Source: Octopus vulgaris (lineage: Eukaryota). Taken from it: DNA of 64,000 bases. The number at the start of each line of letters is the position of its first letter. The stretch's first letter is position 1. Positions 1,941 to 46,012 of this stretch are shown piece by piece. The position numbers and the translations under genes are program-made. The notes under the pieces were generated by a model. That model saw only the letters and a list, made by a program, of their open reading frames with translations, was not told the DNA's origin and did no database searches. Location of the stretch: contig OX597842.1 in assembly GCA_951406725.2 (NCBI GenBank), forward strand, positions 3,038,001 to 3,102,000, read 5' to 3'.

Positions 1941-2327
1941 GTCTCTGTCTCTATCTATCTAGCTATCCGTGTGTGTGTAGTTGTAGATACATATGCATAT
2001 GTCCATGAATAAATACCTACATCTATTTATAGTATATGCATATATGTAAATATTCATATATATATATGTATATAGACAGATAGATAAATAGAGATAGATA
2101 GAGAGATAGAGATAGAGAGAGAGAGAGAGAGAGAGAGGGGGATGGATACATAGATACACACACACGCTCTCACACATACATTAACATATTTTCCAAACTT
2201 TGTATGTATGTTTTTCATATTTTCTTTACCAAAGTATTTTAGTGTTCATTTTTAACCCTCTATTCAATTTTTTCTTTGCCTTCTATATAATTCATCTTAT
2301 ATATATATACATATATATATAGCTGTG

Positions 2328-2371
<44 letters not shown>

Positions 2372-2372
2372 C

Positions 2373-2441
<69 letters not shown>

Positions 2442-3152
2442 GTATGAAGCTTTCTTTCTCCATATTCTGTTTGTTCAATTGTGTTATTTTTATATTGGTT
2501 TGTGTATGTTTTTCTTGTATGCGTTATTATTTTTCTTCTGCTCAATGTAAATATTTATATACACACACGCTCATATATATATACATACATACACATACAT
2601 ATATATTTATATATATATGGGTTTCTTTATTTATACGTATGCAAATGGCTATTTTGATGCATTGATGTATATATATATATATATGTATATATATATTGCG
2701 ATGTGTGTGAGCTTGTATATAGTAGTTTTAAATAGATCTATTTTTATATGCCCGACTTACTGTGTTCAGGCCAAACTGCACTGACATATGTTTGCATGTA
2801 CATGCATACATACACACATACATACTTGCATACATGCATACATACATACACGCAGACACACACACACACACACACACTCACACATTTCAGAGAGAAATTC
2901 AGGTATTGCAAAAGATAAATAGCTTATTGCGCGTTTCTGGATGTCCACACACAGACACACACAGACACACAGACACACACACACACACACACATGCATCC
3001 CTGCATTTATGTATACCAGTGTATATGTTCATATATATATATATATATATACGATGTATATGTGTATATACGTTTATGTTTATATACAAGTGGAATATAT
3101 GAATAATGATATGATTATCCTGAGTTAAGGAGCATGTCCTTTTATTGTTATT

Positions 3153-3210
<58 letters not shown>

Positions 3211-3211
<1 letters not shown>

Positions 3212-3345
3212 GGCAGGAAACTGGCAGAATCGTTAGAGCATAGGACAATATACCTTGCAGCCTTTCTTCCAGCTCTTTACATTCTGGGTTCAAATTCTAC
3301 AGAGGTCACCTTCACCTTTCATCTTTTCAGGGTCGATAAAAAATG
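3211..3345 (+). mobile_element. SINE family B, 5' part (degenerate)
   Basis: ctggcagaatcgttag ... gggttcaaattc ... cacctttcatcttttcagggtcgataaa matches the other family B copies; follows a (TTG)n tract. Confidence 0.75.
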
Positions 3346-3387
3346 CACCATTGGAGCAGGTTGGCCAATGCAATTGATTGCAAGTTG

Positions 3388-3582
3388 ACAATGCGAGTCA
3401 GTTCTGATATCCTTCAGTCTCTTAAGAAGCATTTGGGGTGTTGGGCCAAGTGCACCACTTACTACAGAAATAACTATCGTCTTGGTCTTCTACAATCTCT
3501 TCATGTCTCTGGTTAGGGCCTGATATTTCTCAGTCCTTTTTTTCAATTTCTCTGGTATCCTGCTAGTTATATGGTATTGCAT
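3388..3582 (-). mobile_element. Decayed R4/Dong-like LINE fragment (restriction-like endonuclease region)
   Basis: Minus strand reads AIPYN*..EKYQALTRDMKRL*KTKTIVISVVSGALG, aligning by eye with EKLSKYKDL..IPIIVGALG at 50764-51003. Confidence 0.65.
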
Positions 3583-3584
3583 AG

Positions 3585-3999
3585 TGCAGGAGTGGCTGTG
3601 TGGTAAGTAGCTTGTTTACCAACCACATGGTTCCGGATTCAGTCCCACTGCGTGGCACCTTGGGCAAGTGTCTTCTGCTATAGCCTCGGGCCGACCAAAG
3701 CCTTGTGAGTGGATTTGGTAGACGGAAACTGAAAGAAGCCCGTCGTATATATGTATATATATATGTATATATATATGTATATATATGCGTGTGTGTGTTT
3801 GTGTGTCTGTGTTTGTCCCCCTAGCATTGCTTGACAACCGATGCTGGTGTGTTTATGTCCCAAAACTTAGCGGTTCGGTAAAAGAGACCGATGGAATAAG
3901 TACTGGGTTTACAAAAGAATAAGTCCCGGGGTTGATTTCCTCGACTAAAGGCGGTGCTCCAGCATGGCCGCAGTCAAATGACTGAAACAAGTAAAAGAG
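3585..3999 (+). mobile_element. tRNA-derived SINE family A, full length, internal (TA)n/(TG)n
   Basis: Box A-like tggctgtgtggtaag, box B-like gattcagtccc, 3' end gcatggccgcagtcaaatgactgaaacaagtaaaagag; more than 15 related copies or fragments in the window. Confidence 0.9.
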
Positions 4000-5199
4000 T
4001 CTATGATCTCACATTTTTGTCTCTGTAATCATATCTTGTTGCCATGCTTCCAAACAACACGTGGAGATGAGATATCTCTCGACAAAAATGTAAACAACAC
4101 GCGAAAATGCGATGTCACTATAAAAAAAAAAGCGTGAGCACATGGATTAATCATATATGCATTCCCATTTCGACTCACGCACACACTACAGTATCTTGCT
4201 TATACGTCAACAGATGTATTGTTTGTATAGTTCACACACCAACACGTACAATCTCTCACACATGAGCAAGACAAACATCGTACACAGAGTGTTTAAACAA
4301 CTTAAACGAGAGGAATACTGGTAAACAAATAAAAAATACAGCACGCTTCATTTCAAACAGAGAGAAGAAAGCAGAAAAGCAGATATGATCGGTAATAAAA
4401 CTATGAAAAGATATATAGGTGAATTTCGATCTGTGAGCGTCAGGCAATCATGATACAAAAGGAACCTTAGCACATGACAGACAGTGTTCTGTCAAAAGTT
4501 AGCACTGAACAGACAGACAGACCCATTTAATGTAACTGACCAAAGGGAAACAAAACCAAGAGAGAACAATAGCCATAGTGGGAATGAAGACTTGAGAATC
4601 AAGCTTCAAGTTCATTTGCTGGGAGTACCTCCGCTGGCAGCAATAAGATAGTTCATGAACACTATAGGTTGGTAGCGTAAGTGTAGTCTCTGGTTGTCAT
4701 ACCCGTGTAGTGTTTTGTATTACAATGTCTAACAATTTTTTTAATTTGTTTTTGTCATTGGTCAGTAAGTGTTATTTCCTATTTGCCTCTATCAAGAAAT
4801 CAAACGAAATTACTATTATTCCCTCCAAACTTTGCTTTTCTGACCTGGACATCAATGGTTTGAAACTGACCTATTTTCCATTACATTTCACACAAATTCA
4901 GTGGTGAGTTGCTGAAGCAGAAATATCATTATAACAAATATTCTGCTTATCAGTAGCTTGACCTTAATCACTTCAGCATGTCCCTTAGTAACTGACAATG
5001 TATGCATCTCTGACCATGAGCAGGAGTAGTGGTCAAGCACCATAGCCATGTTTTGAGAGAGATTCTTTGGGGTTTGAATAAATGTAACAAACGCATATTA
5101 ACCATTTTCATACATTTTAGGGTTAAGCATATAGGAAATAACTGTTGCTACCCAAGGACAAAAATCATGTTACACAGGGTTATCGGGTGGTGTAAGGGA

Positions 5200-17550: not shown

Positions 17551-17585
17551 GTTTCTGACGAAGAGCTCCGCTCGAAACGTTAAAC
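17551..17585 (+). ncRNA. Minimal type I hammerhead ribozyme-like motif
   Basis: GUUU-CUGACGA-A-GAGC UCC GCUC-GAAA-CG-UU-AAAC; palindromic stem III region. Confidence 0.7.
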
Positions 17586-32683: not shown

Positions 32684-32726
<43 letters not shown>

Positions 32727-33133
32727 AAAGTAAAGAATGAAAAAACTACAGAAGGCTTAAATGTTAAAAAATATATATATTTGCGTCAATATGTCTGAAG
32801 AATATTAGAAAATTAAAAAAAATTTTTTTCTCTTATAATGACATAATTTAAAAGAAAGACCGGTTTCGCGTGTAGCTTTTCAAATTTCTTGTGACGTTAT
32901 GTTTATGTTGAATAGAGTTATCGTTATGTTTAAGTTCAGGAGAGTTCTAAATAAGGGAAGGTAGTGAGTGATTTCTTCCGGTGTAAGGGAGATAATCACT
33001 TAAAAAATGTTTCCTTTCCCTTGGTGTGAATTTCTCTGTATCAGTATGTTCGGATGGTTGAGTCTGGGCTTGTACTTTTCAATGAAGAATGTTTCCTTGT
33101 TTAGTCTAATTTGCAAGAAGGATATGCACAATA

Positions 33134-33958
33134 GTGTCAGAACAAAATACCAGGAACTTTAGACTGCAAGAACTCAAAAACACCCTAATTGACAGACATT
33201 ACCCAGCTCAACTCATAGAGGATGGGATCAGACGTGCAACAGAAATCAACATAGAAACTTTAAGAAAAGTTCAACACAACAACACACCTTCCCCGAAAAT
33301 ACTACTTTACATATCTACATACAACCCCAGAAACAAAGAAGCCTTCACCATCATCACCCAGAATTTACCAATACTTCATAAAGACCCCAAATTAAAGGAA
33401 ATTCTAAACATACACCAAATCATTAAAAGCTACAAACAGCCTAAATCACTTAAAAAGATTCTCACAAAGGCAAAATTGTCTTCTGAAATTACGGATGCAA
33501 AAGTAAAAAAATGTGGTAGATCGAACTGTGCAACATGTCCTAACCTGCTAGAAGGATCAGAATTCCTCTTTAAAGAGGGACAGAAATTCAAGATCAAATC
33601 TAACTTTACTTGTGCCTCTGAAAACATAATTTATGTCATAAAATGCTCGGGCTGCCACCAAGACTACGTGGGTTCCACGGGACTATCACTCAGACGTAGA
33701 TGCACACTGCATCGACAACAGATTGCATTCCCAGAATATAGAATGATACCTTTTAGTGAGCACATTGAGAAATGCGCAAAGCAACTACTACCACAATTTT
33801 TAATCTTTCCATTGTACCAATGTGCTTTCGGATCATCAACACAAATTAGACTAAACAAGGAAACATTCTTCATTGAAAAGTACAAGCCCAGACTCAACCA
33901 TCCGAACATACTGATACAGAGAAATTCACACCAAGGGAAAGGAAAAAATTTTAAGTGA
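33134..33958 (+). CDS. PLE polyprotein C-terminus: RT thumb, Zn-finger linker and GIY-YIG endonuclease (partial, 5'-truncated)
   Basis: LIDRHYP, STYNP, CGRSNCATC, FTCASENIIYVIKCSGCHQDYVG, R...H, RLNKETFFI..YKPRLN. Confidence 0.9.
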   Translation: MSEQNTRNFRLQELKNTLIDRHYPAQLIEDGIRRATEINIETLRKVQHNNTPSPKILLYISTYNPRNKEAFTIITQNLPILHKDPKLKEILNIHQIIKSYKQPKSLKKILTKAKLSSEITDAKVKKCGRSNCATCPNLLEGSEFLFKEGQKFKIKSNFTCASENIIYVIKCSGCHQDYVGSTGLSLRRRCTLHRQQIAFPEYRMIPFSEHIEKCAKQLLPQFLIFPLYQCAFGSSTQIRLNKETFFIEKYKPRLNHPNILIQRNSHQGKGKNFK

Positions 33959-34063
33959 TTATCTCCCTTACACCGGAAGAAATCACTCACTACCTTCCCT
34001 TATTTAGAACTCTCCTGAACTTAAACATAACGATAACTCTATTCAACATAAACATAACGTCAC

Positions 34064-34102
34064 AAGAAATTTGAAAAGCTACACGCGAAACCGGTCTTTC
34101 TT
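34064..34102 (+). ncRNA. Minimal hammerhead-like motif with U3-A8 core in the pLTR (mirror copy 32852-32890, minus)
   Basis: AAGAAA-U-UUGAAAA-GC UACAC GC-GAAA-CCGG-UC-UUUCUU. Confidence 0.65.
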
Positions 34103-34272
34103 TTAAATTATGTCATTATAAGAGAAAAAAATTTTTTTTTAAATTTTCTAATATTCTTCAGACATATTGACGCAAATATATGTTTTTTAACATTTAAGCC
34201 TTCTGTAGTTTTTTCACTCTTTACTTTTTTCTATATATTCACCCACGTGCTTTCTCAAACCAACTTTCTTAT

Positions 34273-34337
<65 letters not shown>

Positions 34338-35329
34338 TATAACCAGCCGAAGCAGCAAAGATAATCTTGAACTCGACTGACGAATGAAAACTCCGGATGA
34401 CCCGTCCTTGTTTTATCCTTATCCCTTTTTGTATCATCTAACTATCTGGATGTCATGTTGTCGTCTGTTACGTTCTTGTCCCATTTTTTGGAGAGAGAGA
34501 GAGAGAGATGAGAGAGAGAACAGTTATAAGAAATATCAGATCATCCATCTAGTTACTAATTGTTAATTGCTATGGAATTATTTTATTAAATAACCTCTTC
34601 GCTAATACAGTCTAGTTTTGAATAATTATATTGACAAAGTAAATTACTTTCCATCTGCCCACGTTTTGATACAAAACACTTGGTGATAAAGATCAATTTG
34701 TTCCTCTCAGGAGGCTCAAATGTTAGTGTTAAAGGACTCCAAATATTGCAGATAGTGAAGCTATAGTAAGCCGGAATTAAAACACATGCAGACTGAAGAG
34801 AAAGTGATACATGGGTGACATTTTAGAAGTGAAAATGAAGATGAAGGAAAAAACAGGAAGAATAGACGTAAGCAAAGCAAGGTAAAGGACGAATACTTAA
34901 GTTTTTCGTCCTTTACCTTGCATGAGTCAATATATGTGCGAATAGTTTTGTGTGTTTAATCATGTCGAAGTGTCAAGAATAGGATGTAGGGTTTTGAACC
35001 TTAGTTTTTAGTCACGACTGCGAAACGTTTATATCTACGCATCGATCATATTCTCATAACGATGCTACACAATATTATACATTGTGCTGAGGAATGAAGG
35101 CCCTAGCTTAGTGGTTAGGGCATTTGGTTCACGCTCGTAAGGTCGTGAGTTCGATTCTTGGCGGCACGTCGTGCCCTTGAGCTAGACACTTTTTTCCATG
35201 TTGTCCCCGTTCACTCAGATGGCCAAAATGAGTGGCACTTGAAATTCAAAGGGTCAGTCTTGTCACATTTTGAATCACACTGAATCTCCCCCTGAGAACT
35301 ACGTTAAGGGTATGCGTGTCTATGCGATC

Positions 35330-43050: not shown

Positions 43051-43135
<85 letters not shown>

Positions 43136-44459
43136 GAAACAAAATCGCAATAGAGGACAATAAAAACATTCGGACAGACAGATAGACGATACAAAGACGG
43201 ACAAGGGAAACAACAATTAGAAGGACAAGCAAAAAAGAAAAAAGAAAAAAAAAACGGGTCATTCGTGGCCTTCTTTTCTCGGTCAAGTCCCAGAAGTCAC
43301 GACCGTTTATATGTATAGACACACACAACGAACTTTCAATTTCTGCCGACCAAATCCTCTCATAGGTCTTTTGTCTGCCTGAGGCTATAGCAGAAGTCAC
43401 TCGCTCTTGGTGTCACACAGTGGGACTGAACCTGGAACCATGTGGTTAGGATGCAAGCTTCTTACTAAATATCCACGCCTGTGCATCTAAGTTTTCCACG
43501 CTGTTTCCATCTATTGAATTCCAAAGTTCCAAATTCACTCATAAAATCATTAATCGGCCCAGTGTCATCCATAATCGAAACCCCTTGCCCAAAGTGCCGT
43601 TCGATGCGACCGAACTCGAAACCACACGATCGCAAAGCAAGCCGGTTTCTAACCGTTCCCCCTACACGATGCTTGCAAGACTACAGACTGTTATTTAACG
43701 AAGATTTGGCCACTGTTTCTACCCCGTTCAACGGTCACGTAAATGTTTTACCGCCTCCTCCTGGACATCAGAAGGCACAGCTTCTAAACCTACAAAACCG
43801 TTTGAGCGGAAAAGCCGTATGGTCGATCGATACATCATAAACTTCGCTCATTAAATGTATCGATTGAATTTGTGACGACAATGGCCAGCGATGTGTGAAG
43901 CGATGGTAAATATGTAGATTAGATTGTCTTGCACAATTTAGAATGTTCCCTTTTGGATTCTAAATGGAAATCGTCTCACAATCGATCGACCTCCCCTTTC
44001 TCCTCTTCCTCCTCTTCCTCCTCTTGTTGTTGTTGTTGTTGTTGTTGTTCTTCTTCTTCTTCTTCTTCTTCTTCTTCTTCTTCTTCTTCTTCTTGTTCTT
44101 CTTCTTCCTCCTCCTCCTCTCGTCCCCCTCACCCTTTCGTTCTTGTTCTTGTTCTTCTTCTTCCTCCTCCCCCTCTTCTTGTTCTTCTTCCCCCTGCCCT
44201 CCTCCTCCTCCTCCTCCCCTCTTCTTGTTCTTCTTCTCCTCCCCTCCTCCTCACCTCTTCTTCTTGTTCTTGTTCTTGTTCTCCTCCTCCACCTCCTCCC
44301 GTCCTCCTCCTCCTCCCATGATATTCTCCGTCTCACCGTTTCTCTGTAGCTTTCCTCATACGTTATTCTGCTTTTCTTTCTTTCTTCCTTCTTTCCTTTT
44401 TTCTTTTTATTCGCCTCCCCCAACACCATGCTCTCTCTCTGTGTATATTTCTTCATCTT

Positions 44460-45065: not shown

Positions 45066-45081
<16 letters not shown>

Positions 45082-46012
45082 GAAAAATACAAACTGTGAC
45101 AAGAACGTAAAACATTTAGGAGACGATACAAAAAACACGGACGGGACATTCGAAGCCTTCAATCTTCAGTCAAGAACCGGATAATCCTAGCAATTTCGGC
45201 TGATTAATCTTGAGATCACTCCGATCCGGCCAGCCCTAAGGAAAAACTAAGCTACGAGCATTAGATTCCTTGGAAAAAGGATTGAATGTATACGAAACAG
45301 GGACAGAAAAACAGACGATGCCACACGAATATAAAATACAAAAAATAATAATGGTAAAAACAGGACAAAAACAACGGGTGTCTTACGACTAATAAACAGT
45401 ACAACAAGTTTAGCTGGCGTATTTGGAAAAAATGCCTTTATCGGCGGACGAAGACAACGATGTTCTCACGCCGGTGGTCGGAGGCCAAAAGGCTTATTTG
45501 ACCAGCGGTCACGTGAGAGAAGAGAGAGAAAAGAAAGGGGGCAAAGGAAACAAAGAGAGAGAGAAAGAGGGACGAAGGCAACAAAGGGGGGAGATGAGAG
45601 AGAAAGAAGGAATTAAAGAGAGGAGAAGAAAGCGTGCGTGCCAAGGATTGGCTTGTGAGTGCAAAGTGAGAAAGACAGAGAAATGTGAGAGAGTGGGGGA
45701 AGAGTAGACCAAAGAATCAGGGCAAGAAAAGGGAAAAGGAGGAGAGAGAAAAGGAGAGAGAGAGAGAAGGGGACAGATCAAAGTAGAGTGCAAAGTGTGA
45801 AAGGCAGAGAAATGTAGGAGAGAGAGACAGTGTTATAGAGTCGTACCAAATTTACAGGAATATGTACTTACATAAGGCCAACGAGGGTACGTACGGACGC
45901 CGCTATATATATTATATGTAGAAAAATACAAACTGGGACAAGAACGTGAAACATTTAGAAGACGATACAAAAAACACGAACGGGACATTCGAAGTCTTCA
46001 ATCTTCAGTCAA
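45066..46012 (-). mobile_element. Non-coding element bounded by direct repeats of about 108 bp, next to (TA)n (PLE- or retrozyme-like)
   Basis: 45066-45173 matches 45905-46012; relatives at about 34335-34490 (+) and 43135-43300 (-); carries a structured RNA motif. Confidence 0.65.
45163..45235 (-). ncRNA. Candidate hammerhead with non-standard strand order
   Basis: GGCUG GCCGGAU cgg AGUGA-UC-UCAAGA uuaau CAGCC-GAAA-UUGCU aggauu AUCCGGU UCUUGA-CUGAAGA. Confidence 0.5.

Follow-up and report, generated by a model that had tools for sequence, protein, structure and literature searches.

A truncated Penelope-like repeat copy in Octopus vulgaris and the rewired, predicted self-cutting hammerhead of its full-length relatives

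The stretch of DNA analysed here (the window) comprises 64,000 nucleotides of the Octopus vulgaris contig OX597842.1. The sequence at 34335-34490 is a dead, decayed, 5'-truncated copy of a non-coding Penelope-like repeat; its parts, its relatives and its neighbours are collected in Table 1. The letters GAGT, CCAGCC, GAAG, CAGC, ACTCGA and CTGACGA, picked out in an initial annotation of this DNA, lie where that annotation placed them, directly behind (TA)30. Aligned to a full-length relative, the copy starts at +2 on a scale on which 0 is the first base after the NUC of the predicted cleavage site, in agreement with the proposed start within about 2 nt of that site, and everything upstream of +2 is gone. 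The copy cannot be active, because it has neither an NUH nor a partner for stem II or stem III and folds no better than shuffled sequence (z = +0.32); with GAAG in place of GAAA, its hammerhead core is also incomplete. Its match to 45206-45132 (minus strand) runs over 75 nt at 73% (E = 1e-7), and a weaker one covers 43294-43132; the latter lies in the third relative that had been proposed, which proved to be real. Dead as it is, the 34335 copy fairly represents a rewired hammerhead that is both real and widespread.

Table 1. Features in and around the truncated copy (window coordinates; offsets are counted from the predicted cut).
Feature	Position	Strand	Remarks
Classical minimal type I hammerhead-like motif, CTGACGA...CGAAACGTT	17555..17585	+	in another repeat
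Different Penelope-like element, inverted 5' copy	32717..33113	-
Different Penelope-like element, 3' part	33110..34274	+
Decayed classical minimal hammerhead	near 34072..34098		within the 33110-34274 element
(TA)30 tract	34275..34334	.	target site; abuts the 5' junction
Truncated subfamily-A copy	34335..34490	+	spans +2 to about +157; the element's final ~15 nt are gone
GAGU	34335..34338	+	what remains of the stem I 3' strand (UCGAGU)
4-nt linker	34339..34342	+	from stem I to the stem II 3' strand; type-SGC-like
Stem II 3' strand CCAGCC	34343..34348	+	partner GGCUGG upstream in full copies, lost here
GAAA block and stem III strand	34349..34356	+	decayed to GAAG (34349-52) and CAGC (34353-56)
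3-nt bulge and GA, taken to be a kink-turn motif, and helix Q 3' strand	34357..34369	+	one G>U decay
Stem I 5' strand ACUCGA, then CUGACGA core	34371..34383	+	34371-76 and 34377-83
3' strands of closing helix T and outer helix	34384..34399	+	partners upstream, missing here; one change each
tRNA-like start, presumably of a SINE	35095..35175	+	assigned by resemblance
Subfamily-C copy	43132..43308	-	5' end at +17; U4 and G8 of the core have decayed
Subfamily-B insertion, ~1.1 units	45080..46012	-	partial copy from +40, then one full ~840-nt unit; edges approximate
Complete rewired hammerhead, subfamily B	45150..45290	-	predicted cut just 5' of 45213

A pattern combining the G block, the kink-turn and CUGANGA matched the window once, at the complete subfamily-B copy, compared with 0.00 matches in 100 shuffles; it skips the 34335 copy, which reads GAAG. 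An Rfam scan of the whole window gave just microsatellite noise among the 150 of 473 matches listed, and microsatellites likewise swamped the output of repeat finders. The different Penelope-like element next to the copy has the (TA)30 tract in common with it and carries a 37-nt tail on its direct copy only. This element encodes a C-terminal endonuclease-like domain, which we take to be of the GIY-YIG type, in an open reading frame for which Pfam returned no family and which is 24% identical to the frame at locus L091 described below.

Genome searches with the three window copies yielded three related subfamilies, A, B and C. For subfamily A, to which the 34335 copy belongs, 45 matches were obtained from 40 scored of 649 candidates, with 77-91% identity apart from the copy itself; for B and C, 40 were scored of 3433 and of 2000 candidates, respectively. 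Exact patterns set genome-wide lower bounds of at least 728 matches for A and at least 2722 for A, B and C together, each with a control count of 0. The family thus runs to thousands of non-coding units of ~750-850 nt, arranged as tandems, partial tandems and inverted pairs; they end at (TA)n and often carry a tail of 30-40 nt. With 5' truncation, partial tandems, inverted 5' copies, a 30-40 bp tail and a microsatellite target, the units show what Craig et al. 2021 (PMC8557442) list as insertion features of Penelope-like elements, in non-autonomous form. No reverse transcriptase (RT) open reading frame was attached to A, B or C in the loci examined, and a query with the protein of a Penelope-like element (PLE) with a C-terminal endonuclease found unrelated neighbours only, such a query being liable to miss distant RTs.

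Several further observations concern these loci. Locus L091 (minus strand, 2262-4850; G000:C19) contains an open frame of 862 aa, presumably Neptune-like, in which RT and C-terminal endonuclease motifs are accompanied by a CxxC linker; two subfamily-A copies lie ~1-2 kb downstream of it. The units at L013, L038 and L075 carry a CACGTGAC motif that is kept in all three subfamilies, and the A/B/C tail ends in a splice-donor-like GT(A)AG(T) followed by a pyrimidine-rich tract; these might be an internal promoter and a 5' intron. Several pattern-matched copies have short deletions inside the ribozyme between repeated short words (e.g., GGC..GCC), which look as if the RT had skipped the folded part.

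The full copies supply the strands that the truncated copy lacks. Seventy-five of the 76 found were aligned (44 A, among them L044, which lies within a B locus, 12 B and 19 C); L066 was excluded because of a 4-nt insertion. The first half of the fold runs from the stem II 5' strand through helix Q, GA, stem III, UH and stem I to a 4-nt linker, and the second half from the stem II 3' strand through GAAA, stem III, a 3-nt bulge with GA, Q and stem I to CUGANGA. The 5' strand of stem II therefore lies upstream and not behind CUGANGA, and the kink-turn helix Q links stem III to stems I and II. Over the 75 copies the helices are paired in 91.4% of 1781 cells, against 83.0% for shuffles and 14-40% for slid registers. 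Two-sided changes occur at six of six pairs in stem II, two of seven in Q, three of five in stem III and three of six in stem I. The compensatory evolution claimed for stem I, where the copy at 45213 (UCAAGA/UCUUGA) and subfamily A (UCGAGU/ACUCGA) differ on both sides at two pairs, is accordingly borne out and extends to the other three helices. Pair-type measures failed to beat shuffles (81/500 and 252/500), and for this reason, and because there are few lineages among the rows, A/B/C covariation alone amounts to moderate evidence.

Each position of the hammerhead core (CUGANGA, GAAA and NUH) is kept in 70-75 of the 75 copies except N7, which is free, as had been supposed (G in 37, A in 19, C in 15 and U in 4); this conservation is partly by construction, because an exact core pattern was used to select 20 of the rows. 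Stems I, II and III abut the core and covary, as they do in a hammerhead. Stem III in particular is present and covaries, but with pairing other than that predicted: GCUG, the expected partner of CAGC before UH, occurs in none of the 75 copies, which instead have GCAG/CUGC, GCAA/UUGC, GCGA/UUGC, ACCG/CGGU or ACCA/UGGU. GAAG and CAGC turn out to be single-copy decay and not features of the subfamily, being found in two copies and in one copy, respectively, the latter keeping GCAG upstream. The commonest cleavage triplet is AUC, with A at 16.2 in 48 of 75 copies (alignment A1, column 28-30); according to PMC1636495, AUC was essentially absent from the natural hammerheads known in 2006.

Helix T, which starts directly after A9, and a hairpin H directly before the stem II strand together span the break between A9 and G10.1. 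Candidate pairings for helix T are AAGAAA/UUUCUU (A), GAAGG/CCUUC (B), AAGAARGC/GCUUUCUU (C) and AGGGG/CCCCU (a further family, E); this helix rests on the changes between lineages, because within A/B/C it is only slightly better paired (0.71-0.90) than slid registers (0.44-0.75). Hammerheads are reported to tolerate one extra nucleotide at A9/G10.1. The predicted kink-turn is a 3-nt bulge followed by tandem G.A/A.G pairs between two helices; its four positions are kept in 70, 73, 72 and 73 of the 75 copies and also in Naiad ends. Nested minimum-free-energy folds do not yield the proposed structure (z = -2.0, +0.4 and +1.2), and Rfam hammerhead models gave no match at E ≤ 10 in two full copies and the 34335 region. 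Readings as an HDV-like or a hairpin ribozyme, judged by their consensus structures, were dropped, the required P3/L3 and loop A strands being absent.

The initial annotation had proposed a permuted hammerhead. The core does run in S-G-C order, but this is no simple permutation, the CUGANGA block being split from its stem II strand; nor, given that order, is it the circularly permuted, pseudoknot-free three-way junction of type I, II or III. Block order, a short linker between stems I and II and a brace helix are those of type SGC, and would fit an ordinary type-SGC hammerhead that takes its stem II from the strand right behind CUGANGA. In family E, moreover, 4-6 pairs, G-U included, could form with the G-rich run behind CUGAUGA. 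Such a structure is very improbable and, for A/B/C, largely refuted: the strand behind CUGANGA is paired in 18.2% of cells, below shuffles, so that block C is not intact, whereas the upstream partner pairs in 86% and accounts for the six two-sided changes of stem II, and the family E run has a Watson-Crick partner, CCCCU, upstream. We give as little credence to a working ribozyme of the classical minimal type I formed by CUGANGA and a downstream CGAAU...GUC. The 10-nt spacing is that of the minimal hammerheads of PLEs and A, B and C all retain the motif, but A15.1 is a U, no stem I follows the downstream GUC, CGAAUG is partnered upstream by CAUUCG, and families E and Naiad lack the motif.

The rewired fold recurs outside A/B/C. 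A pattern made of core and kink-turn only, with the A/B/C stem III sequences excluded, gave 2043 genome matches against 69 for the reversed control. At 22 of 30 out-of-sample loci the upstream sequence supplies stems I, II and III in the same wiring (p ≤ 0.01 against shuffled upstream DNA), one of these (L158) being chance pairing in a truncated copy; the eight that fail are truncated or decayed. Loci L153-L181 (family E) and L167 represent further repeat families with this wiring and different helix sequences. The same comparison found the helices in 18 of 37 pattern matches in the octopus genome itself, in none of seven in viral contigs (one spacing) and in none of 94 distinct sequences among the matches listed for metagenome contigs (at least 120 loci, one spacing).

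The genome also holds copies matching the printed 3' end of octopus Naiad consensus sequences. As given in the supplement of PMC8557442, the 3' ends of Naiad_Obim and Naiad_Ovul have the same wiring with other helix sequences (GACAC/GUGUC, CGGAU/AUCCG, AUGG/CCAU and CUGCCC/GGGCAG) and a GUA triplet. That paper describes Naiads as lacking canonical hammerheads, marking eight as 'half core' and Naiad_Ovul as 'HHR_half_core'. Like A/B/C, Naiad PLEs show (TA)n targets, partial tandems, inverted 5'-truncated copies and a 30-40 bp tail (Craig et al. 2021, PMC8557442); unlike them, the A/B/C units are non-coding and have no sequence in common with the printed Naiad_Obim and Naiad_Ovul ends. As to membership of the Naiad clade, A/B/C have the wiring and target in common with it, and no open reading frame with GIY-YIG and RT was attached in the loci examined.

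Among described hammerheads the closest in layout is type SGC (HRIMA-1 and variants; PMC10085705), which has the S-G-C order, the short linker, the brace between the far ends of stems I and II and the core in common with A/B/C. In A/B/C, by contrast, block C is divided, with the 5' strand of stem II and the brace strand placed upstream; the RNA ends leave through an extra helix at A9/G10.1, and the brace connects to stem III by a kink-turn motif. Eckert et al. 2023 (PMC10085705) count six permutations, taking CUGANGA to lie within 1-2 nt of its stems; type SGC was validated in vitro, with cleavage by RNAs having the same linker and brace helix; and SGC RNAs came from metatranscriptomes only, genomes of known organisms giving none but one weak GCS case. 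The break at A9/G10.1 in A/B/C violates the block rule as stated there.

Two other systems are linked to PLEs. Non-LTR retrozymes (Cervera and de la Pena 2020, PMC7229834; bioRxiv 10.64898/2026.07.22.740005) are likewise non-coding tandems with one hammerhead each and a link to PLEs, but theirs are type I hammerheads in tandem units of 170-400 nt, whereas A/B/C have a rewired hammerhead in units of 750-850 nt and exist mostly as short dispersed copies, so that they do not classify as non-LTR retrozymes. The minimal type I hammerhead of PLE pseudo-LTRs (Cervera and de la Pena 2014, PMC4209133) similarly sits near the 3' end of a PLE-type element; it has C-G-S order, a weak stem III and dimeric action, in contrast to the full stem III and predicted monomeric cage of A/B/C. 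A literature search found no description of the present wiring; Weinberg et al. 2015, which PMC13725137 cites for hammerheads with additional helices, may bear on its novelty.

The positions at which copies start offer a footprint of the RNA that was copied. For subfamily B at (TA)4, all 28 loci in a hand tally over -14 to +16 start between 0 and +14 and none between -14 and -1 (first 100 of 393 matches listed; P = 2e-8 if starts were uniform). Seven A loci at (TA)n start in +2 to +14. An A sample unselected on upstream sequence gave, by hand tally of the first 100 of 728 matches listed, 20 ends in -1 to +15 and nine in -35 to -2 (P = 9e-5). When 30 copies of this sample were scored by script, nine ends (eight independent) fell in 0 to +15 and three in -97 to -1, while 18 copies read past -97. 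On the downstream side, an anchored A/B/C sample had 57 ends in 0 to +16 versus 20 in +17 to +44 (P = 1e-10; first 100 of 2722 matches listed, with 21 read-through rows and two partner arms set aside); a script run on 30 such copies agreed, with 19 versus 6, two of the 19 being scored by the aligner at -3, where (TA)n runs into position 0. Because the first letter of the pattern excludes intact read-through copies, the downstream-anchored sample was used for the shape of the distribution and not for the truncated fraction. Counts on the reverse strand were 12, 53 and 61 for -44 to -14, -14 to +16 and +16 to +46; unnormalised and obtained with anchors of unequal breadth, these alone indicate a step rather than a peak.

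Copy starts thus crowd into 0 to +16 past the predicted cut, with an approximately tenfold drop upstream, a distribution that reverse transcription of a cut RNA would be expected to leave, and the pile-up just after the predicted site is the reason for thinking that the RNA likely cuts itself; at the level of the family, the start test suggests cleavage at that site. The initial annotation had named random truncation points, and full-length members without a stem III partner, as findings that would speak against it; the family has clustered starts and a partnered stem III. Its proposal that the 34335 copy is an inserted 3' cleavage product gains from the family-wide pile-up and is weak for this copy taken singly, starts being spread over 0 to +16. 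One copy's start proves little, since most starts fall 5-15 nt short of the cut; the mode is not at 0 but at +9, where an AT microhomology exists. Inverted junctions at or near the cut that use stem I complementarity or the TCGA palindrome were seen at L144, L015/L016/L025, L320/L321, L002 and L023; at L144 and L015/L016/L025 the snap-back falls on position 0, and several inverted junctions begin there by way of stem I complementarity. The underlying list of 5' ends is biased by the query and was used for junction types only.

The same starts could arise with no cut at all, if the fold is real and an RT stalls while unwinding its 3' strands and joins (TA)n by AT microhomology. The modes at +9 and +5/6 (AT and TA), the many copies that read through and the high TA-junction count in +16 to +46 as well are all consistent with stalling. 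We consider it unlikely, because the last paired 3' strand ends at +10 whereas the boundary is at -1/0, because equal AT microhomologies at -3 and -12 in B went unused (0 of 28), and because some copies start at exactly 0 with 1 nt shared and family A has non-TA junctions. Less probable still is that the fold is a non-catalytic relic or a structure bound by RT or another protein, the RNA 5' end near 0 being a transcription start or a protein cut. Kink-turns bind proteins, which would suit such a role, and the split core is without tested precedent in the literature searched; the minimal hammerheads of PLEs, moreover, cleave poorly in vitro, as reported in PMC4209133. On the other hand, lineages A, B, C, E and Naiad agree at every catalytic position, N7 alone being free, and a start site exactly on the NUH cleavage position would have to be coincidence.

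The reading we favour, and hold to be probable, is that the full relatives of the dead 34335 copy form a hammerhead with a split core and a permutation that is not circular, for which self-cutting is predicted, and that the copy itself likely arose by reverse transcription of the 3' cut product. In this scheme, which is drawn from sequence comparison, the kink-turn would bend Q back alongside stems III and II and so brace stems I and II, and the RNA would cut itself directly after NUC. A borrowed Penelope-type RT/endonuclease, acting in trans, would prime from a nick in (TA)n that lies 150-170 nt downstream of the cut; our best guess at the donor is Naiad, because wiring and target are in common. 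On cut linear RNA the RT would run off the 5' end and make short cDNA only, which may be trimmed and joined by AT microhomology, or snap back on stem I, to give short copies such as 34335. On re-ligated circles or uncut tandem RNA it would read through, producing long and tandem copies; the 18 of 30 family-A copies that read past -97 call for such putative circular or uncut templates.

A wider interpretation, to which we give somewhat better than even chances, is that this would be a seventh natural hammerhead topology beyond the six permutations, active in an animal germline and constituting the missing ribozyme of Naiads, with the genome recording both linear and circular templates. The RNA would form a self-bracing cage, with stems I-III closed by the kink-turn and the ends of the RNA leaving via the extra helix at A9/G10.1. 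The ribozyme would serve the non-coding passengers of Naiads as well, short copies representing the linear cut product and tandems the re-ligated circle.

If the RNA cleaves, the rule behind the enumeration of hammerhead permutations would be broken, and a non-circular permutation would exist in thousands of copies in animal genomes; cleavage would also explain the apparent lack of a ribozyme in Naiads. The copy-start footprint would be rare in vivo evidence for templating by a PLE-type RT on ribozyme-cut RNA, and through it the role of hammerheads in Penelope-like elements becomes directly testable.
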